Positions 5,215-60,118 of a stretch of DNA of 64,000 nt are shown in pieces. The notes under the pieces are model-generated. The model saw only the letters and a program-made list of their open reading frames with translations. It was not told the origin of the DNA and made no database searches. Position numbers and translations under genes: made by a program. Positions within the stretch are counted from its first letter, which is position 1. The number at the start of each line of letters is the position of its first letter. Origin of the DNA: Lentimicrobiaceae bacterium (GTDB lineage: Bacteria; Bacteroidota; Bacteroidia; Bacteroidales; UBA4417); contig JAQVEX010000004.1 of the NCBI GenBank assembly GCA_028697555.1, positions 9,332-73,331 on the forward strand, written 5' to 3'.

Positions 5215-5326
5215 GGTGATGGGTGATGGGTGATGGGTGATAAGTGATAAGTGATGAGTTACGAGTTACGAGTTAGGAGTTAGGAGTTGGGAGTTGGGAG
5301 TTGGGAGTTATGAGTTAGGAGTTACA
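5215..5326. repeat. Array of 16 tandem heptamers that change stepwise along the array: GGTGATG x3, GGTGATA, AGTGATA, AGTGATG, AGTTACG x2, AGTTAGG x2, AGTTGGG x3, AGTTATG, AGTTAGG, AGTTACA.
   Basis: Read directly. There is a perfect 7-nt register over 112 nt, and neighbouring units differ by 1-2 substitutions. A partner C-rich array (CTCGTAA CCCGCAA CACGCAC CACGCAA) lies at 5578..5609. Confidence 0.9.
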
Positions 5327-5664
5327 GCACTTCGGTCACTGAGCTCGTGCCCACCGAGCGTAGCCGAGGTGTCGAAGTGCCGAAGTGCTGCAGTGGCTGA
5401 AGACCCGAGATTTTCGGCATTTCGCTTCAATAGCCGTGCCTTTAAAGACACGGCTATTGAGAAAGACACAACACTCTATTCTCCATTTTCGGCATTTTGG
5501 TGGCTGAATTTACTGAAGCCCGATACACCGATATCTCGCTTCGCTCAATATCGGCACTCAATGACCGAAAATGTCGAAACTCGTAACCCGCAACACGCAC
5601 CACGCAACCTGTCAAATAAAAGTAAAAAAGCATAATTTTACCCCAAAATGCTTAATTTTGCATT

Positions 5665-6423
5665 ATGAACATCACCGAAAACAAGCATCGTTATCTTGTG
5701 CATTTAGCTTTCGACGGCACAAACTATCATGGTTGGCAAAAGCAGCCTAACGCTCCTACAATACAGGAGACAATAGAAGATGCTTTGAGCAAAATCACCA
5801 AACAAGAAATAATACTTATTGGATGCGGAAGAACCGATACAGGTGTTCATGCCCGAAAGTTTTTTGCTCACTTCGATTGCGACGGTTTTTACACTCCGCA
5901 AGAGCTCTCACAACTGACTTACAAGTTAAATGGCTTTTTAGACGAGGATATTGTCATTTTTTCAATAAATAAAGTCGATAATTCCGTGCACTCACGCTTT
6001 TCGCCAATCAGTAGAGAGTACAAATATTATATCATCACAAGCAAAGACCCGTTTAAGTATAACTACGCATATAAAATTACCGTACCTTTAGACATTGAAA
6101 AAATGAACGCAGCTGCAAAACTTCTGATAGGCTCAAAAGATTTTCAATCTTTCAGTAAAGTAAACACGCAGGTTAACAATTTTATTTGCACCGTATTTGA
6201 GGCGTACTTCACCAAAACCGACAATGAAATAGTATTTACAATATCAGCTAACAGGTTTTTGCGAAATATGGTAAGAGCTATTGCCGGCTCTCTCATTGAT
6301 GTCGGACTAAGCAAATGTTCTATAGACGATTTCAGCCAAATTATCGAAAGTAAAGACAGATGTAGCGCCGGACTTTCGGTTCCTGCAAAAGGGTTGTTCC
6401 TAAACGACGTGGTTTTTGAGTAG
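5665..6423 (+). CDS. truA: tRNA pseudouridine(38-40) synthase TruA
   Basis: 252 aa. Contains the GCGRTDTGVHA catalytic Asp motif and has typical TruA length and layout. Confidence 0.9.
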   Translation: MNITENKHRYLVHLAFDGTNYHGWQKQPNAPTIQETIEDALSKITKQEIILIGCGRTDTGVHARKFFAHFDCDGFYTPQELSQLTYKLNGFLDEDIVIFSINKVDNSVHSRFSPISREYKYYIITSKDPFKYNYAYKITVPLDIEKMNAAAKLLIGSKDFQSFSKVNTQVNNFICTVFEAYFTKTDNEIVFTISANRFLRNMVRAIAGSLIDVGLSKCSIDDFSQIIESKDRCSAGLSVPAKGLFLNDVVFE

Positions 6424-6446
6424 TAGAGATGAGTTTGTTTACAAAT

Positions 6447-6591
6447 CATAGCCATTAGCTGTTGGCTGTTAGCTATTGGCTATGGTCGTTTGCTAATAGC
6501 CAATGGCTAAAAGCTAAAGGCTAAAAGCCATTAAACCACGTACCACACAACACCGACCACTAACCACCAATCACTATCCACTAATCACTAT
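6447..6591. repeat. Composite heptamer element. Inverted arrays (GCTGTTR/GCTATTG arm against GCTAAAR/GCCAATG arm) form a long imperfect hairpin, followed by 8 units of an ACCACNN C-rich array.
   Basis: Left arm catagccattagctgttggctgttagctattggctatgg, loop tcgtttg, right arm ctaatagccaatggctaaaagctaaaggctaaaagccatt. Then accacgt accacac aacaccg accacta accacca atcacta tccacta atcacta. The block starts 24 nt after the truA stop. Confidence 0.85.
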
Positions 6592-6674
6592 TTCCCATAT
6601 TAACTTTACATTAATTGGTACTTTGTGCTTAAAATTTTAAGAAATAGATTATTTTTGTTTGAAATAAACGCAAT

Positions 6675-7802
6675 ATGGGATTAAAAAAAGGAGATAAGGT
6701 AAGATTTTTGAATACAACCGGTGGAGGAATTATCGTTAAGCAACTCAATAGCTACATGGTTTTGGTTGAAATTGAAGATGGTTTTGAAGTACCCGTCTTA
6801 ATGAACGAAGTTGTGAAAATTGGAGAATCTACACCGGCAAGCCGAATATTTTTGCAGGAAGATGAAAGAAAAGCTCAACGTAATCAGGAAGAGCAACATA
6901 AAGCTGTAAGACAAGATAGTAAAAAACAAGAAACCGCTTGGGAAGTTGAAAAAGATTACACTTTGGAAGATGAACAAACCTACATGAGTATAAAGCCCGA
7001 TAATGACGTGGAAAAGGGAATTTACTTAGGTTGGTTTCCTGTTGATATTGAAAAAATTCAGATAAGCGACGTAGAAATTGTTCTTTTCAATTACACCAAT
7101 TGCGAAATTATTTATTCAATATTTCTGCAAAAAACCAAAAGTGGATTCATTGGTTACGACTACGGCACTATTCCGGCAAACAACTGCCAAGTCATCGACG
7201 TAATAAAAGCCGACAAACTTGATATGTGGCAAAAAGGAGAAGTGCAAATAATTTTCTTTCACGAAAAAACCAAAGCCATTCAAGCTCCGCATTCGGTTAC
7301 TTTTAATTCCAAAATCTCACAAATCACCGATGTTGCTAATTTGCAGGCTTTCCCAATTTACAAACAACAAAAAGGCATAATTCACACTTTGTACAGAACC
7401 GCAAGTGCCGAGGAAAAGCAAAAACTCGTAGAAGAAAGCAAATATGGCGCTGTACTGAAACAAAAAAACAGTTCGGTGTTCGAGATTAGTCCCATTGTCA
7501 ACCAATTCAGAATAGACGACGATACTGCCGAAGTTGACCTGCATATTTCAAAACTGTTGCCCGATTTTTCTAAAATGAAAGCTAAAGATATTCTACAATA
7601 TCAGCTATCTTTTTTCGACAAGGTTTTGTCGAGCGCAATAGCGTACAACTACAAGAGACTCATTGTTATTCACGGGATTGGCAACGGAGTATTAAAAAAT
7701 GCAATTCTTAACAGAGTTAGTGTCAACGGCGATATTGAAGTTAAAGACGCTCCATTTGCCAAGTACGGTTACGGAGCAATTGAATTATTCATAAATTATT
7801 AA
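6675..7802 (+). CDS. Smr (small MutS-related) domain protein with an N-terminal DUF2027-like region
   Basis: 375 aa. The C-terminal ..VDLHISKLLP...LIVIHGIGNGVLKNAI.. segment matches the Smr domain pattern. Confidence 0.7.
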   Translation: MGLKKGDKVRFLNTTGGGIIVKQLNSYMVLVEIEDGFEVPVLMNEVVKIGESTPASRIFLQEDERKAQRNQEEQHKAVRQDSKKQETAWEVEKDYTLEDEQTYMSIKPDNDVEKGIYLGWFPVDIEKIQISDVEIVLFNYTNCEIIYSIFLQKTKSGFIGYDYGTIPANNCQVIDVIKADKLDMWQKGEVQIIFFHEKTKAIQAPHSVTFNSKISQITDVANLQAFPIYKQQKGIIHTLYRTASAEEKQKLVEESKYGAVLKQKNSSVFEISPIVNQFRIDDDTAEVDLHISKLLPDFSKMKAKDILQYQLSFFDKVLSSAIAYNYKRLIVIHGIGNGVLKNAILNRVSVNGDIEVKDAPFAKYGYGAIELFINY

Positions 7803-7805
7803 GCA

Positions 7806-9698: not shown

Positions 9699-9702
9699 AC
9701 TC

Positions 9703-10824: not shown

Positions 10825-10828
10825 TAAT

Positions 10829-14154: not shown

Positions 14155-14227
14155 AGCCGTTAGCTCTTAGCTTTTGGCTATTGGCTTGGTCTAGCCAACG
14201 GCTAAAAGCTAACAGCTAAAAGCCAAG
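14155..14227. repeat. Heptamer inverted-array hairpin (GCTNTTR arm / GCTAAMR arm)
   Basis: agccgttagctcttagcttttggctattggcttgg tc tagccaacggctaaaagctaacagctaaaagccaag. The block starts 15 nt after the stop of the TPR gene. Confidence 0.85.
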
Positions 14228-14276
14228 AAAAGGAATAATATTTGTAGTACAACATCAGTAACAACATATTAAAACC

Positions 14277-15614: not shown

Positions 15615-16769
15615 ATGAACAAAATAAAAACTCTAAGTCTATTTGTCTTGCTGTTAGGTGTTTTGTTTTCGTGCAAAAAACCACCCGAACCGCATATTAC
15701 AACTCCTTACGAGTTAGAAATACCTCGTTTTTTCCCAACTCGAACAAATATTCCTGTCGATAATCCACTAACAGTCGAAGGTGTTGAATTAGGAAGGTAT
15801 TTGTTTTACGATGGAAGACTTTCGGGAAGAACCCACGCAGACAGCCTGATGAGTTGCGCCAGTTGCCATAAGCAATCAAGGTCGTTTGATGTTGACCCCA
15901 ACCAAATTACGTTTCAAAACGGAAGACCCGTTGGACTTGGCGGAACTCCCACACCACACGCAGTTTTACCGCTCATAAACTTGGTATGGAACGAAAGCGG
16001 ATACATGTGGAACGGTAGTTTTAACAATTCCAACCCCGATAAATACAAAAAAGGTATTGAAGGAATTGTTTATCACACTCTCATCGATCCAAACGAAATC
16101 AACGGCGATACAACAGATATAGTAACACTTATACAAAACACAAGTGGCTACCCCGAACTGTTTGAAAAAGCCTTCGGCTCAAAAATAGTAACCGTAGATG
16201 GAATTTCTAAAGCCATAGCTCAGTTTGTACGAACTCTTATTTCTTACAACTCTAAATTCGATAAATATTTAAGGGGTGAAGTGCAACTTACAACCGATGA
16301 ACTTATGGGTTACGAGCTTTTTATGACCGAAGAAGGTGCAGACTGCTTTCATTGCCACGGTGGTGACGGAAATCCGCTGTTTACAACCAATTTGTTTTAC
16401 AACAACGGAACCGATTCTATCTTCAACGACCCATTCGATAGGTTTTCCGTAACAGGCGTTAGGAGCGATATTGGAGCATACAAAGCTTCAACCCTCAGGA
16501 ATATAGTCCATACGGCTCCGTACATGCACGACGGTCGTTTTAGCACATTGGACGAAGTGATTGAGTTTTACTCAACAGGAATTGTTGTTTCGGAATTTAT
16601 ACATCCGCTAATGCACCACGCAAACAACGGCGGAACTAAACTTACACCTATTGAGAGGCGACAATTAACAGCATTTTTGAATGCTTTAACCGACGAAAGC
16701 TTTATAACTAATCCCGATTTCGGACCACCCACACAACTTCCCGATGGAGCTACTCCTTTGTCAAAGTGA
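15615..16769 (+). CDS. Di-heme cytochrome c peroxidase family protein (MauG/MbnH-like)
   Basis: 384 aa. Two CxxCH heme motifs (CASCH, CFHCH). APYMHDGRF..L..V(I)EFY signature of the CCP/MauG family. Confidence 0.8.
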   Translation: MNKIKTLSLFVLLLGVLFSCKKPPEPHITTPYELEIPRFFPTRTNIPVDNPLTVEGVELGRYLFYDGRLSGRTHADSLMSCASCHKQSRSFDVDPNQITFQNGRPVGLGGTPTPHAVLPLINLVWNESGYMWNGSFNNSNPDKYKKGIEGIVYHTLIDPNEINGDTTDIVTLIQNTSGYPELFEKAFGSKIVTVDGISKAIAQFVRTLISYNSKFDKYLRGEVQLTTDELMGYELFMTEEGADCFHCHGGDGNPLFTTNLFYNNGTDSIFNDPFDRFSVTGVRSDIGAYKASTLRNIVHTAPYMHDGRFSTLDEVIEFYSTGIVVSEFIHPLMHHANNGGTKLTPIERRQLTAFLNALTDESFITNPDFGPPTQLPDGATPLSK

Positions 16770-16770
16770 G

Positions 16771-17004
16771 TGATAGCTATTAGCCGTTAGCCCCCGAAGT
16801 CTCGGGGCTGTTGGCAGATAAAGTTAGAAATTAGAAGTCAGAAGGTAGAAATGGGGAATTCACTATTAATAACCACTATTTCTAATTTCTAATTTTTAAT
16901 TTCTGATTTCTAACTTCTAAAACCCGTAACCCGCAACACCAATCACCAACCATCATTCACCATTCACCATTCACCATTCACCATTCACCAACCACCAATC
17001 ACCG
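16771..17004. repeat. Composite mosaic element: GCTATTA/GCCGTTA units, small GC hairpin CCCCGAAGTCTCGGGG, inverted TTAGAAN arrays forming a hairpin, then 12 in-register ACCCGYA/ATCACCA/TTCACCA heptamers.
   Basis: Read directly. It fills the whole gap between two convergent genes. Both stop codons (TGA at 16767..16769 and TGA on the minus strand at 16999..17001) touch or lie inside the arrays. Confidence 0.9.
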
Positions 17005-18162
17005 TTTGAACGGTTGTGCGTATTTTTCAACATCTTGAAGTGTTATCGTATTGCCTGCCATTATAGATAAACGCTCTACAATGTTTCGCAATTCTCTGAT
17101 ATTTCCGTTGTAATGCAGTTTTTGGAGAGCTTGCACGGCTTCATCAGTTATCTTGGGTACATTTCTACCCTGACTTTCGGCAATAGTTTCTAAAAAGTGG
17201 GCAACCAAAAGCGGAATATCATCTTCGCGCTCGTTAAGAGTCGGGACATGTATCAAAATAACACTTATACGATGATATAAGTCTTCGCGAAAGCGATTTT
17301 CTTCAACTTCTTTCAATAAATTTTTATTGGTAGCCGCAATAACTCTAACATCAACAGGTATTTCCTTCTCGCCTCCCACTCTGGTAATTTTATTTTCTTG
17401 CAAAGCTCTTAAAACTTTAGCCTGAGCCGACAAGCTCATATCTCCGATTTCATCTAAAAAAATAGTTCCTTTATGAGCTTGTTCAAAATCGCCTTTTCGC
17501 TGCTTTACAGCCGAAGTAAAAGCTCCTTTTTCATGTCCGAATAAAACACTTTCAATAAGTTCCGAAGGAATAGCAGCACAGTTAACCTCAACAAAAGGCT
17601 CATCGGCTCTGTTGCTTTTTTCGTGCAACCATCTGGCGACAAGCTCCTTACCTGTACCGCTGGCTCCGGTAATAAGCACACGAGCGTCGGTTGGAGCCAC
17701 ACGCTCAATCATATCTTTTATTTCTTTTATAGACTCCGATTCGCCTATCATCTCGTATTGCTTATTCACCTTGCGCTTAAGCACCTTAGTTTCGTTAACC
17801 AAATTAGTCCTATCCAACGCATTTCGTAGCGATACAAGCAATCTGTTCAAATCTAAAGGCTTTGGAATAAAATCGTAAGCACCTATGTGAATAGCATCCA
17901 TAGCGGTTTCTATAGTCCCGTGTCCGGAAATCATTATAATTGGTGAATCGGTGATTTTCAACAGTTTTTCCAAGACTTCCATTCCGTCAATTTGCGGCAT
18001 TTTTATATCGCACAAAATAACGTCGAAATGCTCTTTCTCAACCATACTAATTGCCATAAGCCCTTCACTTGCTTCCTCAACTTCGTAGTTCTCGTACTCC
18101 AATATATCGCGCAAAGCATTTCTTATAGGAGCCTCATCGTCTATTACTAATATTTTTGTCAT
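16999..18162 (-). CDS. Sigma-54-dependent response regulator (receiver + AAA+ domains) with no recognisable C-terminal DNA-binding domain
   Basis: 387 aa. Receiver domain (ILVIDDE...DVILCDIKMP). Walker A GASGTGKE. GAFTSA loop (a GAFTGA variant). The protein ends about 20 aa after ..GNIRELRN.. Confidence 0.85.
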   Translation of the reverse strand: MTKILVIDDEAPIRNALRDILEYENYEVEEASEGLMAISMVEKEHFDVILCDIKMPQIDGMEVLEKLLKITDSPIIMISGHGTIETAMDAIHIGAYDFIPKPLDLNRLLVSLRNALDRTNLVNETKVLKRKVNKQYEMIGESESIKEIKDMIERVAPTDARVLITGASGTGKELVARWLHEKSNRADEPFVEVNCAAIPSELIESVLFGHEKGAFTSAVKQRKGDFEQAHKGTIFLDEIGDMSLSAQAKVLRALQENKITRVGGEKEIPVDVRVIAATNKNLLKEVEENRFREDLYHRISVILIHVPTLNEREDDIPLLVAHFLETIAESQGRNVPKITDEAVQALQKLHYNGNIRELRNIVERLSIMAGNTITLQDVEKYAQPFKR

Positions 18163-18310
18163 TATATTTTTGTTTGATTTTGTAAAAGTAATGATTTTTA
18201 AACAAAACTGTTCTTAATTTTATACAAATAGTTTCATATAAAACGATTTTTGCTCTAAATATATTTTAAAAATTTGCTATTTATTATATGAGTAACGAAA
18301 TTATCTTAAC

Positions 18311-18341
18311 TTTGCAACAGGATATTATATAATTATTTTTG
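18311..18341 (+). promoter_or_regulatory. Bacteroidota-type promoter candidate: TTTG (-33), 19 nt spacer, TATTTTTG (-7)
   Basis: TTTG at 18311..18314 and TAnnTTTG at 18334..18341, only 9 nt before the clpS ATG at 18351. Confidence 0.45.
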
Positions 18342-18350
18342 TGCGTAATT

Positions 18351-18629
18351 ATGCCTGACCATAATGTAAAAAGAGTCCCAAAACAGGACATTGACGATGA
18401 CACGGGTAACGAGTATAAAATTACTTTGTATAATGATAATATTAACACGTTCGACTACGTTATAGATTGTCTGATGACAATTTGTAATCACACTCACGAA
18501 CAAGCCTCACAGTGCGCAATAATAACGCATATAAAAGGAAAATGTATAGTAAAAAAAGGAGAAAAAGAAGTTTTGGCACGCATGAATAAACAACTTATAA
18601 TAAAAGGTTTAAAATCAGTTCTATCATAA
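18351..18629 (+). CDS. clpS: ATP-dependent Clp protease adaptor ClpS
   Basis: YKITLYNDNINTFDYVIDCL...HE.A matches the ClpS core. The ATG at 18351 is preferred over the GTG at 18339, which sits inside the promoter box. Confidence 0.85.
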   Translation: MPDHNVKRVPKQDIDDDTGNEYKITLYNDNINTFDYVIDCLMTICNHTHEQASQCAIITHIKGKCIVKKGEKEVLARMNKQLIIKGLKSVLS

Positions 18630-21561: not shown

Positions 21562-21593
21562 GGACTATCAAATTTAGAATAGTCCTTTTTTTT
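21562..21593 (+). terminator. Rho-independent terminator shared by convergent genes
   Basis: GGACTAT (loop caaatttaga) ATAGTCC followed by TTTTTTTT. It lies 30 nt after the OMP gene stop and abuts the nrdG stop. Confidence 0.7.
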
Positions 21594-22053
21594 ATCTTCG
21601 CATAAGTTCGGTAATATCATGCATTAAGCCATCTTTAACTTTGTAAAGTCTTTGGTTTGTCTGCAACGACTTTAAGCCTCCTAGTTCTTGTTTGTAAGAA
21701 CCCAATTTTATATAATCGAAATTCTGTGTTTTAACTTTGTTTAGTTTCTCGCAACCCGAATACCAAGCTGTTTTTATGCACAATTCAGATTGCTTTTTAA
21801 TAAAAACCGATAACTTCTCAACTTCAAACGGATTGGCATCTCCACCCATAAAACATACGCAAGTAATCAAATATCCGTACTTACTCAGCAAATTTAAAAT
21901 CACAGTTTCGGTCAAAACTTCGCCTATATCTAACCATAGCTGCGGACTATGACATCCTTTGCATTTGTGCGGACAGTTCGAAAGATTTATAGCCAATGTA
22001 ACCTCGTCGGGAATTTCCTGAAAAACTATATCATAATCGGTGTACTTAAGCAT
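21592..22053 (-). CDS. nrdG: Anaerobic ribonucleoside-triphosphate reductase activating protein
   Basis: 153 aa. Radical SAM CPHKCKGC motif. Overlaps the nrdD stop by 8 nt. Confidence 0.85.
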   Translation of the reverse strand: MLKYTDYDIVFQEIPDEVTLAINLSNCPHKCKGCHSPQLWLDIGEVLTETVILNLLSKYGYLITCVCFMGGDANPFEVEKLSVFIKKQSELCIKTAWYSGCEKLNKVKTQNFDYIKLGSYKQELGGLKSLQTNQRLYKVKDGLMHDITELMRR

Positions 22054-24249: not shown

Positions 24250-24445
24250 TTTTCTTCTTAGCCTTTTCTCCCGAAAGCTACGAATTACATGTCGAAAATG
24301 ATAGGTCTTCCGGCTTGTTACATTTTAAAACGCCTTCCCAGAAAAAATTAAATCCAGTGGCTTATACTATTTTAAAACCTATTTGTAACTTACGGCTGCG
24401 GGTACAGCTACCGATTTTAACGGTATTCCCTTAGCATCATTTTGA
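24250..24445 (-). ncRNA. Cobalamin (B12) riboswitch in the nrdDG leader
   Basis: The minus strand reads ..AUGAUGCUAAGGGAAUACCGUUAAAAUCGGUAGCUGUACCCGCAGCCGUAAG...AAGCCACUGG...CUGGGAAGGCG...AAGCCGGAAGACCUAUCAU... It contains the GGGAA/CCCGC core, the GCCACUG..GGGAAGGC pair and the B12 box AGCCGGAAGACC. P1 is AUGAU (24440..24436) pairing with AUCAU (24302..24298). A TAATTTTG -7 box lies at 24451..24458. Confidence 0.8.
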
Positions 24446-24596
24446 CTCAACAAAATTAAGGATTAAATGTGTGCTTTTGGTTTTTAAGCAAATGTTTTAT
24501 CAACAAAGTAATTAACATATGCGTTCAATCTTTTGCGATTCTAACATTTTGGTTAGTCCGAAAATTTCACTCAATTGCAAAACTACCTTATTCTAG

Positions 24597-35691: not shown

Positions 35692-35830
35692 AAAAGCTGT
35701 TAGCTTTTGGCTCTTAGCTCTTAGCTATTAGCTGTATTTAGTCAACAGATAACGGCTAATGGCTAATGGTTAATGGCTAACGGCTAATGGCTAAAAGCCA
35801 ACACGTACCACGCAACCCGCACCACGCAAC
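35692..35830. repeat. Heptamer inverted-array hairpin (GCTNTTA arm / GGCTAAT arm) followed by an ACGTACC/ACGCAAC C-rich array
   Basis: aaaagctgttagcttttggctcttagctcttagctattagctg ... acggctaatggctaatggttaatggctaacggctaatggctaaaagcc aacacgtaccacgcaacccgcaccacgcaac. The block ends at the stop codon of the Zn-ribbon gene. Confidence 0.9.
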
Positions 35831-35831
35831 A

Positions 35832-36800
35832 CTACTCGTCTATTTCCCCAACAAGCTCGCTATCGATAAGGATACGTCCGCAAAATTCGCATACGATAAT
35901 TTTTTTGTGCGAGCGGATATCTAACTGTCTTTGTGGTGGAATGGTGCTAAAACAACCACCGCAGGAGTTTCTTTCGACAGGTACTACAGCCAATCCGTTG
36001 CGAGCTGCATTTCTGATGCGTTGGTATGCAAAAACCAAGCGCTCATCTATTTTAGCTTTTTGCTTTTCCGAAATTTCTCTAAGTTCTTTTTCTTCTATTT
36101 CAGTTTCTGCAACAATATCTTTGAGTTCGGTTTGTTTAATTTCAAGTTCGCTTTGCAGTTCTCCAAGTTGCGACTGGAATTTTTCTATGGCATCTTTATT
36201 GGAAGCGATTTTTGCTTCAAACTCTTTTATTTTCTTATCGTTGAGTTGTACTTCCAAACCCTGAAATTCAATTTCTTTTTGAAGAGCATCGTACTCACGG
36301 TTGTTTCTAACATTGTTTAGCTGCTCCTCGTACCTTTTAACCAAAACAAACCTTTCCTTAGTATCGTTCTTTTTGCTTTTGATTTCCTTTTCGCAGGTAT
36401 CAATTTCGTGAATATAATTTTCGATACGAGTGCTCAACCCTTCAACTTCATCTTCCAAATCTTGTACTTCCAAAGGAAGCTCACCTTTTATGATTTGAAT
36501 TTTATCTATTTTAGAATCAACTCGTTGCAACTTGTACAAAGCGGATAAATTTTCTTTAACTGTAAGTTCAACTTCTTGCTGTTCGTCCACCTTTTCAACA
36601 ACTTCTACAACTTCTTTTTCAACAACTTCAGGAACGTCTTTAGTTTTAACTTTGGTTTCTTCGGTTGCTTTAGCTGCCTTAGTTGCTTTGGTTGCTTTGG
36701 TTGTTTTTGTTGTTTTAGTTTCTTCTTTTTTTGCTTTATTAGTTGTCGTAGTTTTCTTTACAACTTTCTTTGTATCTTTTTTGTCTGTAGTCTTTGCCAT
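35832..36800 (-). CDS. Coiled-coil / C4 zinc-ribbon protein (COG1579-like) with a Lys/Thr/Ala-rich N-terminal tail
   Basis: 322 aa. C-terminal CGGC...CEFCGR zinc ribbon, a long heptad-rich centre, and an N-terminal KTTKTTKATKATKAAKAT tail. It is paired with the NIF3 gene, which I recall as a common arrangement. Confidence 0.7.
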   Translation of the reverse strand: MAKTTDKKDTKKVVKKTTTTNKAKKEETKTTKTTKATKATKAAKATEETKVKTKDVPEVVEKEVVEVVEKVDEQQEVELTVKENLSALYKLQRVDSKIDKIQIIKGELPLEVQDLEDEVEGLSTRIENYIHEIDTCEKEIKSKKNDTKERFVLVKRYEEQLNNVRNNREYDALQKEIEFQGLEVQLNDKKIKEFEAKIASNKDAIEKFQSQLGELQSELEIKQTELKDIVAETEIEEKELREISEKQKAKIDERLVFAYQRIRNAARNGLAVVPVERNSCGGCFSTIPPQRQLDIRSHKKIIVCEFCGRILIDSELVGEIDE

Positions 36801-45657: not shown

Positions 45658-45697
45658 AGTGTTTAATTGGTGCAAAAGTAGTGTTTTTTGGTTAATA

Positions 45698-45810
45698 TTG
45701 GCTATTAGCCGTTGGCTATTGGCTGTTGGCTATTTGTCCCGAAGTTTCGGGACGGGTTGCGGGGTACGTGGTGCGGGTTGTCATGCAATTAGCAATGAAC
45801 AATTAGCAAT
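45698..45810. repeat. Mosaic element: GCTATTR/GCCGTTG units, hairpin GTCCCGAAGTTTCGGGAC, GGGTTGC/GGGGTAC/GTGGTGC G-rich heptamers, GCAATTA units.
   Basis: Read directly. The 18-nt hairpin (45736..45753) is identical to the one at 47712..47729. Confidence 0.9.
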
Positions 45811-46609: not shown

Positions 46610-47668
46610 GTGAAATTAGTATTAAAAATTTTCTTAGCCATAATTATTATTGCAATTGTGGCTTTCGCCTCTTTGTTGCTGTATTTAAGTGTTACCAAAT
46701 ACAAACCAAGCGAGCAAGAAACCTTGTATATATCCGATGGCGACACCATAACAGTTGATAGCAGCCGCATTTTTAACGTTATGATATGGAATATCGGTTA
46801 TGCCGGTTTAGACCAAAGCATGGATTTCTTTTACGATGGTGGCAAAAAGGTGCGTCCGACAAAAGAACAATCGGAGCTTAACTTTAATAATATTTTGCAA
46901 ACCGTGCATGAGTTGGGTAACTCCGCAGACTTTATTCTTTTGCAAGAAGTTGATGAAAAATCGAAAAGGAGTTATAAAACTAATCAGATGAATGAGTTTT
47001 GTGTCAATTTCCCTGACCGCTGTAGCAGTTTCGCCCTTAATTACAACGTTAGATTTGTACCCGTACCTGTAAAAAGTCCTATGGGAAGTGTAAAAAGCGG
47101 CTTGCTGACCTTAAGCTCAATCACTCCTACAAGCTCTGTCCGTTACTCGTTTCCAAGCAGTTATGGATTCCCTAAAAATTTGGCTATGTTAAATCGTTGT
47201 TTTTTAGTAAACAGATACGATCTCAGCAATGGCAAGCAATTGCTGATTATAAATACGCATAATTCTGCTTACGACGATGGCAGCATGAGAAAGCAAGAAA
47301 TGGATTACCTTAAAACATTTTTGACTTCCGAATATCAGAAAGGTAATTATATTGTCGTTGGTGGCGACTGGAACCAGTGTCCGCCCAACTTCAATTATAA
47401 ATATACTGATGACGTCTTCGACAGTATAAATAAATTAGATATCCCATCAGACTACCTTCCCGACTGGACTTGGTCATACGACCCATACACTCCAACAAAC
47501 AGAAGAGTTATAATTCCTTATACAAAAGGCGAAACAGCCACAACAATAATCGACTATTATTTGCTTTCGCCAAATTTAAAATTATTGTCTGTAACCGGTG
47601 TTAATAAAGAGTTTGCCTCATCAGACCATAATCCGGTTTTGTTGACGTTTGCATTCGGTGATTGGTGA
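46610..47668 (+). CDS. Endonuclease/exonuclease/phosphatase (EEP) family protein, membrane-anchored
   Basis: 352 aa with a GTG start before the TM helix. LLQEV, NTHN and the C-terminal SDHNPV motif. The last codons and TGA stop come from the GGTGATN array. Confidence 0.75.
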   Translation: MKLVLKIFLAIIIIAIVAFASLLLYLSVTKYKPSEQETLYISDGDTITVDSSRIFNVMIWNIGYAGLDQSMDFFYDGGKKVRPTKEQSELNFNNILQTVHELGNSADFILLQEVDEKSKRSYKTNQMNEFCVNFPDRCSSFALNYNVRFVPVPVKSPMGSVKSGLLTLSSITPTSSVRYSFPSSYGFPKNLAMLNRCFLVNRYDLSNGKQLLIINTHNSAYDDGSMRKQEMDYLKTFLTSEYQKGNYIVVGGDWNQCPPNFNYKYTDDVFDSINKLDIPSDYLPDWTWSYDPYTPTNRRVIIPYTKGETATTIIDYYLLSPNLKLLSVTGVNKEFASSDHNPVLLTFAFGDW

Positions 47669-47741
47669 TGGGTGATGGGTGATGGGTGATGGGTGATGCG
47701 TGGTGCGGGTTGTCCCGAAGTTTCGGGACGGGTTACGAGTT
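47657..47741. repeat. Mosaic element: GGTGATT, GGTGATG x5, CGTGGTG, CGGGTTG, hairpin GTCCCGAAGTTTCGGGAC, GGGTTACGAG.
   Basis: Read directly. It contains four GGG tracts with 4-nt TGAT loops at 47670..47693. Confidence 0.9.
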
Positions 47742-47748
47742 TCAATAA

Positions 47749-48017
47749 TTTTGTTAAACTGCCGTGTAATAAACGAACTTCACTCTTTTCGTATAGATAA
47801 TCTATCATAGAAAAAAATATCAATAGCCAAAAACTTTGCTTTAAAAGGACGGCATACATTTCTTCTGAATGAAGTTCGAAATGAATCCTTAGTGAGAACG
47901 GGAAGTTCCGAGCTTGCTCGGAAATCACCCGCACGAACTTAGGATTCATGAGAACGTAATTCAGAAAAGAAATGTCAGCCTTGACTTTTTGGTTCTTTTG
48001 TGTCAAGACAAAAGAAC
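47749..48017. repeat. Structured interspersed repeat, copy 1: a ~118-nt rod-like imperfect palindrome at 47857..47974 plus a terminal hairpin at 47992..48017.
   Basis: It aligns by eye to 62324..62659 with few differences in the core. I saw only four substitutions across the ~140-nt core compared base by base. Confidence 0.85.
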
Positions 48018-48090
48018 ATAAAAAAGATAGAGACAAAACAGTTTATTTGAAACATTTTAGCCTAATCAAAGCTTTAATTTAAGAAATAAG

Positions 48091-48240
48091 CATTTTCAGT
48101 GCTTCGGTCTTCGGCGCTTCGATACACCTTCGGCACTCAGCGACCTTCAGACACCGAAGCAACTGAAAATGTTGCACCGACCACCAACCACCAACCACCA
48201 ACCACCAACCACAGACCACTGGTTGCTAATTGCTAATTGC
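48091..48240. repeat. GC-rich CTTCGGNN-type octamer hairpin (48091..48171) followed by CCAACCA x4 heptamers and GCTAATT units
   Basis: CATTTTCAGTGCTTCGGT ... ACCGAAGCAACTGAAAATG stem. The last four codons and TAG stop of the 48226..50280 gene lie in the GCAATTA units on the minus strand. Confidence 0.85.
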
Positions 48241-50280
48241 ATCAACCGCTGCATCTACCGCATTTAGCAATGGTTCAATAGAAATTTGATTACCGACTGC
48301 TTTTTTCATCCATTGTTGTGGAGTAAGTCTGCCTTGGGTGTAAATTCTTTCAAATTCTTTGGCAAAATCTTTACCTACAAAATGCTGACTTAGTTGAAAA
48401 TCGATAACGTGCCCTATTGGGTAGTAAGACAAATAAAGCGGATAATCAATCATATGCGAATAAATACCCAAGATAGGTTCGTCTTTACCTCCCAAAACAT
48501 CGGCGTAGTATGAGTTCCAAACGTCTTTTGCAATTCTTACGACAGTTTCTTTAAGCTGTTTTTCGTCGGCGTTGGGATTATCGTAAAGCCATTTCCAAAC
48601 TTCAATATCTACAAGCGCAACGCCCATAATTTCGTAGCATGACCAGAAATTATCCAAAGCATTTTTATGTTCCGACGATTCGTCTTTAGTTTTAGAACCC
48701 AATAATATTTCAAGGTCTCTGTTTTGGAACAAAAATGCTGCAGCTTCGGTAAAGGCATTGTTAGGAACGCCTGACAACATCCAGTACGGCACATCGTTTA
48801 TGCTTAACGTTTGCTCAACATTATGACCAAACTCGTGAATAGCAATATTATATCCTTTATAATCCATTCCCGTTTCAGCAATACGAGTCCTTAGGTGTGC
48901 GTAATCGTTTTTCATAGCTGCACCCCAAGCATGTCCGGAACCGACAGCAGCATCGACTTTTATAAGTTTTGCTATTTCCTGAGCTCTATCTTTTTGCCAT
49001 CCTAATTTTACAAGAATATTCGGCAAATCCTTTTCAAAAGCTATAGTATTGGGATATTTCGTTTCAGTAATTACCGAAAGCTTAGTTTGGTCTATATTGC
49101 TTCTTTCTTTAAAGCCGTCGTACCAAATATCGTAAGGACGCAAATCGCGTTTTAAATCTTGCTTAATAATAGCTGCAACCTTAGCAACTTGCTCAGAAGA
49201 CAATAGAGATTTAAAGAGTGCTTCGACATCATCTACAGAAATTTCCATAGTTCTGTCAAAATTACGACTAATAAAAGTAGGAGAAGTCGGAGTGTATTTA
49301 TCTACCGCCGATAATGCCTTAAAATTGTTGAGAAGGTGCATGTATCGAGTGTCGGGTTCGGCTGTGAATGTTTGTTCGGCATCATCGACATAAATTTTAT
49401 TCGAGAAAGGATTCCACATATATTCGGAACTGTTTATAACTTTCTGCGGAATAGTTTGATAAACAATGTGTTTCATCACTTCGTAAATAGCTTCTTGTCT
49501 GTTAAAACCGTTTTCGCTATCGGCGTAGTTGGCTTTTATTTCATCGCGAAGTCCCCAATGAGAAATAAGACTTTTTCCTTGATCGAATATTTTTTCGTTG
49601 TTATCATTAATCAGGCAACCCGTATTAATGTTGTAGTTTGAAATGTAAAAATCGCCATTGGCATAGGTTTTAGCAATATTCTGATTTAATTCCGAAGGAA
49701 TTCGGTAAGTAAACATATCGCCCAAACGAGCGTAAGCCCATTGCTTGGCTGTCCAATTTTCTCCCAATGTGTTTTTTTGCTCTAATGAATAGTTAGGAAA
49801 GTTCAGAATACAAACGTGAGCTATCTTGTTTAGATACAAGTCGGAAAACAAATGCGACGATATGTCGAACTCTGAAAAGAGCAAATCTACAGGAAGCGGT
49901 TTGTAATTGGAAAGCTGAACAGGTTCTTTTATAAACAAATCGGTTTTGTTGAAATTACCTACAATGGCTTCCATATTGCGGTCTATTCTGTAGAAAAGAC
50001 TATCCAATTCTACAGGGTCTGTGACGAAGTATTTTTTACAAAATTCCGCAAACTCCTTTTCGGTTCCGTCTTCGCTTGTCCACAGCTGTGCCAATTGGTT
50101 TACTCCAATATTGGCTCGTTGCAATGTTGCCTCATCGGCAGATACGGCAATACTATCTATTGTTTGTTCAATAGTTTGTTTTGTAATTTTTGCGATTGAG
50201 CCTTTGTCGGTTCCAGTACTACACGAACTAATAAGCACAACAAGGCTTACAATGATTGATAAAAATGTAATTTTTTTCAT
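48226..50280 (-). CDS. Zinc metallopeptidase lipoprotein (HEFGH motif, possibly M3-like)
   Basis: 684 aa. Lipobox LISSC. The single HExxH is in AIHEFGHNVEQ. The family assignment is tentative. Confidence 0.6.
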   Translation of the reverse strand: MKKITFLSIIVSLVVLISSCSTGTDKGSIAKITKQTIEQTIDSIAVSADEATLQRANIGVNQLAQLWTSEDGTEKEFAEFCKKYFVTDPVELDSLFYRIDRNMEAIVGNFNKTDLFIKEPVQLSNYKPLPVDLLFSEFDISSHLFSDLYLNKIAHVCILNFPNYSLEQKNTLGENWTAKQWAYARLGDMFTYRIPSELNQNIAKTYANGDFYISNYNINTGCLINDNNEKIFDQGKSLISHWGLRDEIKANYADSENGFNRQEAIYEVMKHIVYQTIPQKVINSSEYMWNPFSNKIYVDDAEQTFTAEPDTRYMHLLNNFKALSAVDKYTPTSPTFISRNFDRTMEISVDDVEALFKSLLSSEQVAKVAAIIKQDLKRDLRPYDIWYDGFKERSNIDQTKLSVITETKYPNTIAFEKDLPNILVKLGWQKDRAQEIAKLIKVDAAVGSGHAWGAAMKNDYAHLRTRIAETGMDYKGYNIAIHEFGHNVEQTLSINDVPYWMLSGVPNNAFTEAAAFLFQNRDLEILLGSKTKDESSEHKNALDNFWSCYEIMGVALVDIEVWKWLYDNPNADEKQLKETVVRIAKDVWNSYYADVLGGKDEPILGIYSHMIDYPLYLSYYPIGHVIDFQLSQHFVGKDFAKEFERIYTQGRLTPQQWMKKAVGNQISIEPLLNAVDAAVDAISN

Positions 50281-56999: not shown

Positions 57000-57017
57000 A
57001 ACAATAAAAATTATAGG

Positions 57018-58134
57018 TTAATAATTGCTCCCAAATTGCATCAAATACGATTTTAGGAATTGGTTTATATCGCCGTCAAGCACTTCGCTTGCATTAGTCG
57101 CTTCGGTTCCTGTTCTGTGGTCTTTAACAAGTTTGTAAGGATGTAGCGTATAACTTCTGATTTGCGAGCCCCACTCTATTTTCTTTTTGTTTCCCTCAAT
57201 TTCCATTTGTGCCTCTTTTTGTTTTCGGAGCTCAATTTCGTACAGCTGCGATTTAAGCATTTGTATAGCTTTTTCTCTGTTTTGAACTTGCGAGCGTGTA
57301 ACTTGGCATTCCACAACAATTCCCGTTGGGTGGTGATGAAGTCTGACTGCAGTTTCCACCTTGTTAACATTTTGTCCGCCCGGACCGCTACTTCTAAACG
57401 TATCCCACGAAATATCGGCAGGATTGAGCTGTATATCTATGTTTTCATCTACAACCGGATATACATAAACCGAAGCAAAAGAAGTGTGCCTGCGTTTATT
57501 AGCATCAAAGGGAGAAATTCTGACAAGTCTGTGCACTCCATTTTCTCCTTTTAAGTATCCGAAAGCATGGTCGCCGCTTATCTCTATCGTTACTGACTTA
57601 ATACCTGCAACATCGCCCTCGTTGATGTCTAATTCTGTCAACTTGTAATCGTTTCTTTCTGCCCAACGCGAGTACATTCGCAACAGTATTTCAGCCCAAT
57701 CCTGACTTTCGGTTCCGCCCGCTCCCGAATTTATTTGTATTATTGCATCCAACTCGTCTTCAGTTCCCGAAAGCATGTTTTTAAGCTCCAAATCTTCTAT
57801 TTGAGATAATAATTTGTTGTATAAGCTCTCAACTTCTGCATATTCTTCGGATTGCTCATGTTCTTGGTCGCTTATTTCGGCTTTAACCAATTCAACCAAA
57901 ACCGATAAATCTTCAAAATTGCTATATGCCTCCTGATACGGCTCTGTCCACGATTTTTTTCTTTGAATTGATTTCAGGATTGTTTCGGCTTTCTTGGTAT
58001 CATTCCAAAAATCGGCTGAACGCGTTATTGCTTCCTCTTCCGAAATTTCTGTAAGCTTTTTATCGATGTCAAAGATACCTCCTCAACGCATCTAAGCGTT
58101 CTTTTGCTTCTTTTATTTGGTCGGATGTTATCAT
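57018..58134 (-). CDS. prfB: Peptide chain release factor 2, expressed through a programmed +1 frameshift
   Basis: Frame 0 reads [21 protein letters not shown] then TGA (58134..58069). The +1 frame continues [12 protein letters not shown]... into the 293-aa ORF, which carries SPF and GGQ (SGPGGQNVN) motifs. Confidence 0.9.
58069..58083 (-). promoter_or_regulatory. prfB +1 frameshift site: AGGAGG TAT CTT TGA C
   Basis: SD-like AGGAGG at 58083..58078, slippery CTT at 58074..58072, and in-frame TGA at 58071..58069 followed by C. Confidence 0.9.
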
Positions 58135-58143
58135 ATTATGGTT

Positions 58144-58608: not shown

Positions 58609-58615
58609 TTACAAA

Positions 58616-59068
58616 TTAGTAAAATTCAACAAGTTCTATGTCGAAAATCAGGACGGAGTTTTTAGGAATTTTGGGTTTTTCGTTAACTCCATATCCCAAA
58701 CTTGAAGGAATAAAAAGTTTAATTTTCCCGCCTACGCCTATAAGCTGAACTCCTTCGCTAAAACCTCTGATAGTATTATTAAGAGTAAGACTTACCGGCG
58801 AGTCCGATGTCTTGTCAAAAAAAGTGCTATCTAAAAGCATTCCGGTGTATTTAACTCTAACCAAGGAATTGTGCATAGGATGCATATCGTTCCCAGGCTC
58901 TTCTATAAAGTAATACAAACCGCTATTGCTACGAGTTGCGTTGATATTGTGTTCGGTAATATATTCCTTGATTTTAGCCTCATCAATAGCGTCGTAGTCG
59001 GGGTTTTCGGGGTCGCAGGCAACAAATGCCAATGCTACTATTAGTAAATAAAACAGATGCCTTCTCAT
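58616..59068 (-). CDS. FKBP-type peptidyl-prolyl cis-trans isomerase lipoprotein
   Basis: 150 aa. Lipobox AFVAC. GF.EG...G.GGK..L.IPS.LGYG pattern. Confidence 0.8.
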   Translation of the reverse strand: MRRHLFYLLIVALAFVACDPENPDYDAIDEAKIKEYITEHNINATRSNSGLYYFIEEPGNDMHPMHNSLVRVKYTGMLLDSTFFDKTSDSPVSLTLNNTIRGFSEGVQLIGVGGKIKLFIPSSLGYGVNEKPKIPKNSVLIFDIELVEFY

Positions 59069-59260
59069 GTATATTGCTTGTTTTTTTATGTATTGTTAAT
59101 CATCGATTGGCAAATTTAACAAAATCATATTATTAGATATTGATTAACATAAAAAAGAAAAATTATTTTGAAAATTTAAGACACAACAACCGATGATATT
59201 GTGCAACAACAAACATTTACAAAGTTTCCAAATCCGGTTAACAAATGCAGATTATGTTTT

Positions 59261-59950
59261 TTAAGCATTTTCCAAAAGCTCATCGACTAGCTTTGGTGTG
59301 GCTGTGCCGGCTTTATCTGCAATTATATTTAAATTAGAAACACCGCTAACATTACTTGCTTTCGGGTCGATATAATATTTGGGGATATCACGTTTGGCAT
59401 AATGTATAAGCGATGCAGCCGGATATACGACCATTGAAGTTCCTATAATAATCACTATATCTGCTTTTTCAACGATATTGGCAGCTTTAACGAGCATAGG
59501 TACGGCTTCGCCAAACCAAACTATGTGCGGTCTGAGCTGATAGCCCTTTTCGCACTTGTCGCCTATTTTCAAACCTTCTATCGGGTACGGATAAATCAAA
59601 TCGTCGTACTCCGACGACCTTGCTTTGGTTATTTCGCCATGTAAATGTAAAACTCTGCTCGAACCGCCTCTCTCGTGCAAATCGTCGATGTTTTGAGTAA
59701 TTACATCGACGGTATATTTTTGCTCCAACTTTTTAAGAGCCAAGTGAGCTGCATTAGGTTCGGCTGCTCTTATTTGGTCGTATCTTTCGTTGTAGAATTT
59801 AATAACCAATTCGGGATCTCTCAGCCAAGCATCGTATGTTGCTACATCTTCTACACGATAGTTTTCCCACAAACCATCGCTATCTCTAAAGGTACGAATA
59901 CCACTCTCGGCACTAACACCGGCTCCTGTTAATATTACTATTCTTTTCAT
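59261..59950 (-). CDS. cobB: NAD-dependent protein deacylase (Sir2 family)
   Basis: MKRIVILTGAGVSAESGIRTFRD, QNIDDLHERGG, HLHGE. The ATG at 59950 is preferred over the upstream GTG. Confidence 0.85.
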   Translation of the reverse strand: MKRIVILTGAGVSAESGIRTFRDSDGLWENYRVEDVATYDAWLRDPELVIKFYNERYDQIRAAEPNAAHLALKKLEQKYTVDVITQNIDDLHERGGSSRVLHLHGEITKARSSEYDDLIYPYPIEGLKIGDKCEKGYQLRPHIVWFGEAVPMLVKAANIVEKADIVIIIGTSMVVYPAASLIHYAKRDIPKYYIDPKASNVSGVSNLNIIADKAGTATPKLVDELLENA

Positions 59951-60028
59951 AGTTACGATTTTTTCTTTCAAAGGTACACAATTTTTTGGTTTCACAGTAC
60001 CTAAAATGGGATAAAAAGTTTTAAAATT

Positions 60029-60118
60029 GCCATTAGCTGTTAGCTATTAGCCGTTGGCTATTAGCCATTAGCTTATGTTTACTTAGCCAAAAGCTAACAG
60101 CCAATAGCCGATAGCTAA
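60029..60118. repeat. Heptamer inverted-array hairpin (GCYRTTR arm / GCYAAHA arm)
   Basis: gccattagctgttagctattagccgttggctattagccattagc ttatgtttactt agccaaaagctaacagccaatagccgatagctaa. Confidence 0.85.

Follow-up and report, generated by a model that had tools for sequence, protein, structure and literature searches.

Mosaic heptanucleotide repeats in the intergenic spacers of a Lentimicrobiaceae genome belong to a known but poorly understood repeat class

To our knowledge, heptanucleotide repeats, known for more than 30 years, have no accepted origin or function. Here, we analyze ten intergenic blocks of 7-nt tandem units (blocks A to J) in a 64-kb stretch of DNA from a Lentimicrobiaceae bacterium (Bacteroidota; contig JAQVEX010000004.1, positions 9,332 to 73,331), referred to below as the window. 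The blocks are a real member of the known, poorly understood class of heptanucleotide repeats and not a new kind of element. In common with heptanucleotide arrays of the simple sequence repeat (SSR) class, broadly defined, they contain at least three head-to-tail 7-nt units beyond chance, they are dispersed (ten blocks in 64 kb) and draw on several unit families, and they vary in length and sequence between relatives at conserved spacers.

The short tandemly repeated repetitive (STRR) sequences of heterocystous cyanobacteria were reportedly described by Mazel et al. in 1990, and the units of STRR1 to STRR3 are CCCCAGT, TTGGTCA, and CAACAGT. The original prediction for this window named STRRs as an analog, and the comparison is apt, as both are tandem 7-nt units of several families per genome, intergenic and dispersed. 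The two differ in unit sequence and host phylum, and unlike STRRs, the blocks are mostly degenerate and short (3 to 16 units), with facing inverted arrays and a fixed order of unit families. The blocks are not STRRs in the strict sense, given a Lentimicrobiaceae host and units other than those of STRR1 to STRR3. The small dispersed repeats (SDRs) of cyanobacteria, said to have been described by Elhai et al. in 2008, are very short palindromes nested in hairpins and tandem heptamers. An 18-nt GC hairpin in our blocks resembles them, by description only, in sitting at the apex of AGCYNTT/GCYAAWR palindromes and in being present or absent in orthologous spacers; it differs in being an ordinary terminator stem in other phyla as well.

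Heptanucleotide repeats are the most overrepresented long SSRs (LSSRs) in many prokaryotes, and polymerase slippage has been proposed as their source (Mrazek 2007, via PMC4679880 and PMC4692102). As the survey of Mrazek, Guo, and Shah (2007) is relayed in later papers, it likewise found period 7 above other periods and in noncoding DNA; it dealt with single perfect arrays, and mosaic palindromes and exchange between loci apparently lay outside its scope. In Xanthomonas, GGGAATC repeats are intergenic, are sometimes inverted, and occupy the same spacers of related species with extensive variation in length and sequence (Rehm et al. 2015, PMC4692102). These repeats and the GGGGAYT repeats, in Xanthomonas and Nostoc, resemble our blocks in forming inverted pairs, in being conserved by spacer yet variable, and in having the same polarity (PMC4692102), but they represent one G-quadruplex unit family, and the units of our blocks mostly cannot form quadruplexes. 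Direct repeats of TAACTGA occur in Beggiatoaceae, Cyanobacteria, and five Bacteroidetes, and the same paper mentions in passing other heptamer repeats and "larger assemblages" of them in spacers of Gramella, Aequorivita, and Elizabethkingia, with contigs ending in them (MacGregor 2015, PMC4679880). The TAACTGA repeats are also heptameric and intergenic; they differ in that most are found in a single orientation, a few nucleotides upstream of start codons, and in that no palindromic architecture is described for them (PMC4679880), and TAACTGA itself is absent from the blocks of the window. Finally, a Nostoc preprint ascribes modest effects to promoter-proximal heptamers, with a role not worked out (bioRxiv 10.1101/2022.06.06.494920).

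The original prediction also likened the blocks to bacterial interspersed mosaic elements (BIMEs). Like the BIMEs of enterobacteria, with their repetitive extragenic palindromes (REPs), and like the REP doublets forming hairpins of Pseudomonas (REPINs; PMC3116915), the blocks are dispersed intergenic mosaics of few modules in recurrent order, with hairpins and duplicated copies. REPs, in contrast, are linked to REP-associated tyrosine transposases (RAYTs) and have neither a 7-nt period nor a tandem-unit structure (PMC3116915), and no REP consensus palindrome (~35 to 40 nt) is visible in the blocks. The mosaic character of the likeness held, with junction strings of 18 to 26 nt shared among blocks, and membership is not supported, given the missing REP consensus, stems unlike those of terminators, and the lack of a RAYT among the 49 window genes scanned. 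We regard the resemblance as one of organization only, by analogy. The blocks are not MITEs (miniature transposable elements with inverted repeats) either, lacking a defined length, terminal inverted repeats, and target-site duplications. The novelty that the prediction implied was not borne out, since heptanucleotide repeats, inverted pairs, and spacer variation had been described already (PMC4692102, PMC4679880). We found in the literature neither Lentimicrobiaceae mosaics nor a catalogued family that matches the blocks.

The period of 7 nt stands out in the window. Tandem Repeats Finder reported arrays of period 7 (or 14 or 21) inside all ten predicted blocks. When the 64-kb window and block-shuffled controls were scanned for strict arrays of periods 4 to 15 by lag-p self-match, there were nine strict arrays of period 7, totaling 441 nt, seven of period 14, a multiple of 7, and one of period 9, which is coding; the remaining periods gave none. 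The shuffled controls gave zero arrays. Direct reading bore out the register that had been claimed, with 16 units in one register at 5215-5326 and 12 at 16921-17004, as well as the stepwise change of units, which runs GGTGATG > AGTGATA > GAGTTAC > GAGTTAG > GAGTTGG along 5215-5326. At least six unrelated unit families (GGTGATG, GAGTTAC, GCGGGTT, AGCYNTT, AGAAATT, and GCAATTA) share the one period in the same genome and grade into each other by point changes. The blocks sum to 1,622 nt, 2.5% of the window (roughly 2 percent had been claimed) and 25% of its intergenic bases (1,622/6,479), and of the 17 spacers that are 100 nt or longer, 9 contain a block, with tandem, convergent, and divergent spacers all represented. 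They are 73 to 395 nt long, differ in unit number, and have no common ends. All lie within spacers, only their outermost units overlap stop codons, and no protein-coding signal was found in them. The open reading frame (ORF) 5294-5635, which overlaps block A, is not conserved in the orthologous contig of a sister genome because of an indel.

Arrays often face their reverse complements. AGCYNTT faces GCYAAWR and AGAAATT faces ATTTCTA, and in relatives GGTGATG also faces CATCACC and GAGTTAC faces GTAACTC. In blocks B, C, D, E, F, and J, the facing arrays fold as imperfect stem-loops of 73 to 105 nt with z-scores of -3.4 to -7.0 (200 dinucleotide shuffles per block), in agreement with the imperfect hairpins of 70 to 100 nt that had been claimed. 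When the order of units was permuted in one arm of seven hairpins, however, 60 to 198 of 200 permutations reached the observed energy. Thus, the arms pair at the level of the unit consensus only. Unit variants of the two arms do not covary, and both fine selection on RNA structure and templated correction of one arm by the other were dropped. We conclude that a finely selected RNA structure is unsupported. Nor did G-U pairs mark a transcribed strand, the strand asymmetry of folding having no consistent relation to the direction of the flanking genes.

The stems are not intrinsic terminators. No T-run follows a block stem, a consensus scan of the window found terminator-like sites at the expected frequency (19 versus 16.9), and the sole overlap between such a site and the hairpin of a block is weak (6450-6467, -). 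Moreover, the handedness of the arms (T-rich 5', A-rich 3') is the reverse of that of bidirectional terminators. By sequence, the putative G-quadruplex motif of at least four G3 runs with loops of 1 to 7 nt is matched at 47664-47700 (GGG four to five times), where the (GATGGGT)n stretch of block H has a G3N4 pattern, and three G3 runs occur at each of 5220-5242 and 5290-5308. The stretches that suit the motif are of three types only, (GATGGGT)n, (GGGAGTT)n, and (GCGGGTT)n. The AGCYNTT, AGAAATT, GAGTTAC, and GCAATTA arrays do not match the motif.

The modules recur in a set order. On the plus strand, an AGCYNTT/GCYAAWR hairpin or GC-hairpin core is followed by ACCCGCA/AACCCGC-type units and, outermost, by ATCACCA-type units, and this syntax or its mirror complement (GGTGAT-type and then GCGGGTT-type) is found in blocks B, D, E, and H and on contigs L354 and L361 of the sister genome. 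The order of hairpin, ACCCGCA-type, and ATCACCA-type units had been predicted for blocks B, D, E, and F; it holds in B, D, and E, and in F only the ACCCGCA-type part is present. The predicted 18-nt GC hairpin, GTCCCGAAGTTTCGGGAC, has two exact copies (45736-45753 and 47712-47729) and one variant (~16789-16810), with seven matches at no more than two mismatches against 0.16 expected.

Three lineages could be compared. Lineage W comprises the window and two Logan contigs from other samples, lineage Y is locus L001 of the sister metagenome-assembled genome (MAG) JAPXLB01, a 16-kb contig collinear with window 5.5 to 16.8 kb at 90% nucleotide identity, and lineage X comprises Logan assembly contigs L365 to L374, found by exact-protein look-ups. 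Gene identity between lineages is 89 to 95%, and heptamer arrays are present in every lineage where the comparable spacers, A to D, are readable. Between W and X, genes are 94 to 98% identical and array-free spacers 95 to 100%, while spacer C is 78% identical and spacer D only 29% (125 gap columns). We conclude that the array spacers are the fastest-changing DNA, changing far faster than genes or array-free spacers. Metagenome scans found no further relatives, and exact-protein look-ups of ruvA, the Sir2 gene, and a 196-amino-acid gene returned no record.

How the spacers differ is informative. Spacer B has the same architecture in W and X, separated by one 7-nt indel, one 14-nt indel, and substitutions. 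In Y, the whole center of spacer B is replaced by a palindrome of GGTGATG and GAGTTAC/ACTCGGA units, with 49 nt to the left and ~120 nt to the right, including 36 nt of C+A-rich array, still 99 to 100% identical. Spacer C keeps its outer units in X and Y; both have a GC hairpin at the apex where W has none, and the apex loop is flipped between them (GAAACTTC versus GAAGTTTC). Spacer D has three architectures in the three lineages and the same first unit at the stop codon in all. The modes of remodeling are thus gain or loss of whole units (7 or 14 nt), stepwise point changes that spread along an array, deletion or replacement of palindrome centers, and copying of composite pieces between loci. 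Within a lineage, by contrast, spacer C is identical in the window and the two other samples of W, and contigs from six sequencing runs agree completely in spacer B. Such identity argues that the arrays are not phase-variable switches, and contingency SSRs are rejected, as unit number in these spacers does not vary among the samples and the neighbors are housekeeping genes.

Pieces of the blocks recur at nonorthologous loci. Exact nonperiodic strings are common to two Y spacers (26 nt, TGAGTGATGAGTGGGTGCGGGGGAGT), to blocks G and H (25 nt, TTGTCCCGAAGTTTCGGGACGGGTT), to B and E (21 nt), and to E and G and E and F (18 nt each). These junction strings indicate that pieces have been copied, whether moved or converted, between loci. 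The family is not confined to the 64 kb, for the same unit types and syntax occur on JAPXLB01 contigs L001, L354, and L361; L354 and L361 read AGCYNTT arm, GC hairpin, GCYAAWR arm, ACGCACC units, and ATCACCC units. Lineage X, with arrays in the same spacers, extends the family beyond the window a second time. The blocks thus form a dispersed family, with pieces moved or converted from one locus to another. We note that contigs L001 (16020-16146) and L354 (1-125, reverse complement) end in the same stretch of at least 120 nt, CTGTCTCGTCCTGAAAAAAGTTGACAC...GCAGTCCTA, which has different neighbors, is multicopy, adjoins heptamer arrays, and is possibly the end of an insertion sequence.

The modules are not lineage specific, as might have been supposed. 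In scans of a collection of 185,000 genomes, GGTGATN x4, GCYAAWR x4, and the 18-nt GC hairpin each had at least 120 matches, in genomes of many phyla. Among the matches listed were Cyanobacteria, many Bacteroidota, Acidobacteriota, Planctomycetota, Verrucomicrobiota, Omnitrophota, and Firmicutes, along with Xanthomonadaceae, Vibrio, and Shewanella, and facing arrays were found at many of these loci too. Matches to the 18-mer in other phyla are frequently no more than a terminator stem followed by a T-run or the end of a longer palindrome. Exact recurrence of units and stems would presumably be expected, because 185,000 genomes should hold very many arrays and hairpins. Cross-phylum recurrence therefore probably reflects a large pool of heptamer arrays and hairpins rather than homology, and a shared mobile origin of the modules across phyla is unsupported. 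Spacers in the style of the window are seen in unrelated phyla: a Planctomycetia MAG (CAYHAE01; L263, L270, L281, and L342) has a palindrome with the identical GTCCCGAAGTTTCGGGAC at its tip and GTATTGC-type and CCCTAAT-type heptamer arrays on its flanks, and a Bacteroidales MAG (PWJC01; L146) has three different heptamer or octamer arrays next to one another.

On the sense strand, arrays are G+T-rich after stop codons and C+A-rich before start codons. Where a stop codon was the nearest gene end in Lentimicrobiaceae loci, arrays were G+T-rich on the sense strand in 13 cases and C+A-rich in 4, and 8 of the 9 arrays within 25 nt of a stop were G+T-rich. We extended the count across phyla to ~130 loci with G+C below 58% and arrays lying 1 to 60 nt from an ORF end without overlap; the loci had been gathered strand-blind with two unit patterns and one hairpin, and genes were crude ORF calls, for which the artifacts that we considered would either work in the opposite direction or be insufficient to produce the bias. 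Nearest to stop codons (108 arrays at 83 loci), G exceeded C in 69 arrays and C exceeded G in 14, and T exceeded A in 57 and A exceeded T in 27. Nearest to start codons (56 arrays at 45 loci), C exceeded G in 38 and G exceeded C in 3, and A exceeded T in 44 and T exceeded A in 6. The content of stop or start codons is rejected as the cause, as the G+T versus C+A skew remains predictive of orientation where the two strands have the same density of these codons. Local base composition is rejected as the seed, as array-free spacer sequence at the same kinds of gene ends has almost no skew (mean G-C of +0.006 after stops and -0.008 before starts). Among arrays without a detected partner, G+T-rich and C+A-rich arrays on the top strand numbered 17:9 in the left half and 7:21 in the right half of convergent spacers, 38:21 and 22:51 in tandem spacers, and 10:0 and 7:6 in divergent spacers, where the right half is unbiased. 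In inverted pairs, the G+T-rich arm was 5' in 41 of 44. The G-rich heptamers of Xanthomonas and Nostoc have the same polarity, lying on the coding strand downstream and on the noncoding strand upstream of ORFs (PMC4692102). On the best-supported reading, a single polarity relative to gene ends is imposed on the elements, by filtering or in the course of their generation.

How the blocks arose and persist can be pictured as follows. We think it probable that they are noncoding heptanucleotide simple-sequence DNA arranged in mosaic, nested, imperfect palindromes, with a few short hairpin modules. Replication slippage within arrays would insert and delete whole units, and recombination or repair acting on hairpin-prone DNA would replace centers, flip loops, and convert sequence ectopically between loci. 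Arrays would be tolerated in one polarity only, G+T-rich on the sense strand after a stop and C+A-rich before a start. The elements would then be largely self-perpetuating sequence, and not finely tuned RNAs. Any cellular role is probably generic, in that stem-loops without terminator activity in read-through transcripts, or structure-prone DNA, may insulate neighboring genes. Several points weigh against this account. Slippage by itself does not account for the strong polarity. Arrays are kept in 4 of 4 comparable spacers, so selection instead of inertia is possible, and the outer units and flanks of spacer B, at 99 to 100% identity beside genes of 93%, hint at partial constraint. An RNA-level role in 3'-end protection, processing, or attenuation may exist, the copying between loci could equally be transposition, and slippage as the origin of the 7-nt unit is an old, putative hypothesis.

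The alternatives carry lower weight than simple-sequence DNA. That the blocks act at the RNA level like REPs or BIMEs, as stem-loops that protect mRNA 3' ends, serve processing, or block read-through, is unlikely, though it is an alternative with several observations behind it: the folds are well more stable than shuffles, arrays begin at or a few nucleotides from stop codons and are kept in the same spacers of three lineages, spacer B is highly conserved in its flanks and outer units, and polarity is defined relative to genes. Such a role, however, sits poorly with arms that do not covary and fold as well when permuted, with the absence of a consistently more stable transcribed strand, with centers replaced wholesale among close lineages, and with stems that lack a T-run and have a handedness contrary to terminators. 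Moreover, two blocks lie between divergent genes, where there is no upstream gene to protect. Alternatively, the palindromes or the GC hairpin might be nonautonomous mobile elements (MITE-, REPIN-, or SDR-like) moved by a transposase encoded elsewhere. Identical nonperiodic strings of 18 to 25 nt at several loci and identical GC hairpins in two species would fit, as would a GC hairpin found at the palindrome apex in some lineages only and a 72-nt module of block A that is absent from the orthologous L001 spacer but present elsewhere in that genome. We consider mobility improbable, nonetheless, for the copies have no uniform length, defined ends, or target-site duplications, the 64-kb window encodes no transposase or RAYT, and differences in unit number and composition fit evolution of arrays in situ together with conversion. 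The identity of the GC hairpins is weak evidence besides, as the same hairpin is a terminator stem or palindrome tip in unrelated phyla.

Protein binding has also been proposed for heptamers, namely, for TAACTGA repeats and the Nostoc repeats (PMC4679880; bioRxiv 10.1101/2022.06.06.494920). The blocks might be arrays of sites for a protein that reads 7 nt, with cold-shock proteins, S1-domain proteins, and Rho as candidates at the RNA level and nucleoid or regulatory proteins at the DNA level, and that tunes transcription or translation of the flanking genes. The strict register and the polarity relative to start and stop codons agree with binding, and the C-rich, G-poor unpaired tracts of 40 to 84 nt in blocks B, D, and I resemble Rho loading sites. 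At least six unrelated, intergrading unit families with one period in one genome, however, argue against a single sequence-specific reader, the C-rich tracts are sense in B and D but antisense in E, F, and I, and close lineages differ freely in the number and type of units beside housekeeping genes. We consider binding very improbable as the explanation. That the blocks are low-complexity sequence arisen by chance or an assembly artifact is scarcely conceivable: repeat misassembly might be imagined, as short-read assemblies break at the blocks, but the same spacer sequence appears in independent assemblies from different samples, which already refutes this reading, shuffles give no arrays, the corresponding spacers of a sister MAG contain arrays, and the heptamer class is documented in finished genomes (PMC4692102).

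The ten blocks are dissected in Table 1.

Table 1. Parts of the heptamer blocks, in window coordinates
Feature	Position	Strand	Content
Block A, left	5215-5326	+	16 units: GGTGATG x3, GGTGATA, AGTGATA, AGTGATG, then GAGTTAC/GAGTTAG/GAGTTGG types
Block A, middle	5327-5584	.	Nonheptameric hairpin modules, including CAGCACTTCGG...CCGAAGTGCTG with 8-nt CCGAAGTG units
Block A, middle hairpin	5429-5460		CAATAGCCGTGCCTTTAAAGACACGGCTATTG
Block A, right end	5585-5609	+	AACCCGC/AACACGC/ACCACGC units; identical in L001
Block B, hairpin	6447-6533	.	AGCYNTT arm facing GCYAAWR arm; -41.7 kcal/mol, z -5.7
Block B, array	6534-6591	+	Unpaired, C+A-rich, ACCACGT ... AATCACT; upstream of gene 6675-7802
Block C, hairpin	14155-14228	.	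AGCYNTT/GCYAAWR arms, z -5.4
Block D, part 1	16770-16820	+	GTGATAG, then AGCYNTT units enclosing GC hairpin variant
Block D, part 2	16821-16920	.	AGAAATT/AGAAGGT arm facing ATTTCTA arm; stem-loop z -5.9
Block D, part 3	16921-17004	+	12 C+A-rich units, AACCCGT ... ATCACCG; GGTGATT-type on - strand
Block E, start	34108-34138	+	AGGTAGA/AATTAGA units without facing arm in that spacer
Block E, hairpin	34139-34240	.	AGCYNTT/GCYAAWR arms, z -3.4
Block E, end	34241-34306	+	C+A-rich units ACCACGC AACCCGC ... ATCACCA
Block F, hairpin	35693-35798	.	AGCYNTT arm facing TAAYGGC arm; -50.3 kcal/mol, z -7.0
Block F, end	35799-35832	+	ACCACGC/AACCCGC-type units abutting stop codon of 35832-36800 (-)
Block G	45696-45810	+	Divergent spacer; AGCYNTT array 45696-45734; GC hairpin GTCCCGAAGTTTCGGGAC 45736-45753
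Block G, continued	45754-45781; 45785-45810		GGGTTGC/GTGGTGC units; GCAATTA units
Block H	47657-47743	+	GGTGATG x6, GCGTGGT GCGGGTT, GC hairpin 47712-47729, GGGTTAC GAGTTTC
Block I	48091-48240	+	CTTCGG-type hairpin 48091-48170 (z -6.5); CACCAAC array 48175-48219; TTGCTAA units 48223-48240
Block J, hairpin	60029-60118	.	AGCYNTT/GCYAAWR arms, z -4.9; between two leftward genes

Many of these parts touch genes. In block A, the left array lies upstream of the leftward gene 10-5034 (-); being G+T-rich on the plus strand, it is C+A-rich on the sense strand of that gene. The right end of the block, 55 nt upstream of truA, is C+A-rich on the sense strand as well. Between them, a segment at ~5391-5520 is missing from the orthologous L001 spacer, and the 72-nt hairpin module at 5421-5492 recurs at L354 204-275 with 82% identity. 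In the array of block B, the last 36 nt are identical in L001, and lineage X is short of exactly two units (14 nt). Block D begins directly after the stop codon of 15615-16769, and its GC hairpin variant has the core CCCGAAGTCTCGGG. Four genes end within an array, which contributes their final codons and stop: the first minus-strand unit of block D provides the TGA of the convergent gene 16999-18162 (-), the end of block E, G+T-rich on the minus strand, holds the stop of tilS (34291-35622, -), one GGTGATG unit of block H provides the TGA of 46610-47668, and the TTGCTAA units of block I encode the last codons and stop of 48226-50280 (-). The end of block F and the array of block I are likewise G+T-rich on the sense strand of 35832-36800 (-) and 48226-50280 (-), respectively. 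The CGGGTTG/CGGGTTA direct units that flank the GC hairpin of block H belong to the register of the array. Between blocks H and I, ~350 nt (47742-48090) hold no credible gene, ORF 47557-48036 (-) having no Pfam match, and contain more imperfect palindromes of nonheptameric sequence, such as GAAATGAATCCTTAGT...ACTTAGGATTCATGAG and TTGACTTTTTGGTTCTTTTGTGTCAAGACAAAAGAAC.

The blocks lie among housekeeping genes, including truA, tilS, ruvA, tgt, nrdD, sprA, and the gene for RNase R, as well as lpxB, surE, maf, ccmF, prfB, and recX. Pfam scans of the 49 window genes found no transposase, RAYT, or other mobile-element gene, and the 64 kb contain no tRNA gene. An Rfam scan of the window at gathering thresholds returned a cobalamin riboswitch only and no match to a block, and E-value scans of the blocks gave noise and nothing credible. 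The riboswitch (RF00174, 75.7 bits, 24283-24456, -) lies directly upstream of nrdD (anaerobic ribonucleotide reductase, 22046-24181, -), whose activase is at 21592-22053. The release factor 2 gene prfB (57018-58143, -) is split at a site near 58074, where a short N-terminal frame runs up to AGGAGGTATCTTTGAC, the site of the classical programmed +1 frameshift, within which AGGAGG resembles a Shine-Dalgarno sequence; the listed ORF 57018-57899 covers the downstream frame only. A clpS gene of ~86 to 92 amino acids (18370-18628, +), annotated in the collinear Logan contig L371 and also visible by translation, is missing from the 100-amino-acid ORF list, so that the apparent 466-nt divergent spacer 18163-18628 is really ~200 nt. 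Other repeats in the window are not part of the heptamer family. The DUF6600 gene (ORF 60199-61866, -) has coding repeats unrelated to the blocks, with a 93-nt unit at 60515-60774 (2.8 copies, 77 to 81% matches) and a 12-nt unit at 61178-61245 (5.7 copies), and the 801-nt spacer upstream of it holds a 23-nt AT-rich tandem repeat, TATATGTTATTAAGTTTAAAACA, in 3.3 copies (61872-61946), also outside the family. The gene of a zinc-ribbon PF02591 protein (ORF 35832-36800, -) has coding repeats of 9, 12, and 24 nt in its N-terminal half (36592-36784), e.g., CTTTGGTTG x8.3.

Heptamer arrays might have a handedness more general than the gene ends reveal, independent of gene orientation, such that from either gene boundary into the spacer the strand is G+T-rich when read 5' to 3'. 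We regard this generalization as decidedly doubtful. By such a rule, each strand of facing arrays would in every case read 5'-[GT-rich arm]...[CA-rich arm]-3'. Should the rule reflect a process at the DNA level, the arrays would not be regulatory sites but traces left by a repair or recombination mechanism. A candidate mechanism would be a break at the palindrome center, resection leaving GT-rich 3' tails for RecA, and repair that is out of register or ectopic, which would explain centers replaced outward, flipped loops, and copying between loci.

Heptamer blocks have practical consequences as well. Short-read assemblies break repeatedly at the same positions in blocks A, B, and D (Logan contigs L122, L363, and L365 to L370), and all six truA contigs of lineage X (L365 to L370) start 81 nt upstream of truA. 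The blocks thus limit the contiguity of metagenome assemblies of the lineage, Logan contigs ending within them. As several genes take their last codons and stop from an array, the blocks are also a source of annotation errors. At the same time, they are useful lineage markers, being the fastest-changing part of genomes that are otherwise 94 to 98% identical. Three close genomes and short, readable mosaics make good material for the study of slippage, center replacement, loop flipping, and copying between loci, in an undescribed lineage and with a mosaic syntax that is unusually readable. The polarity extends one earlier report on G-rich units (PMC4692102) and is a testable constraint for any model of heptanucleotide repeats. 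Ultimately, the interest of these blocks would rise if the orientation rule were general and mechanistic.

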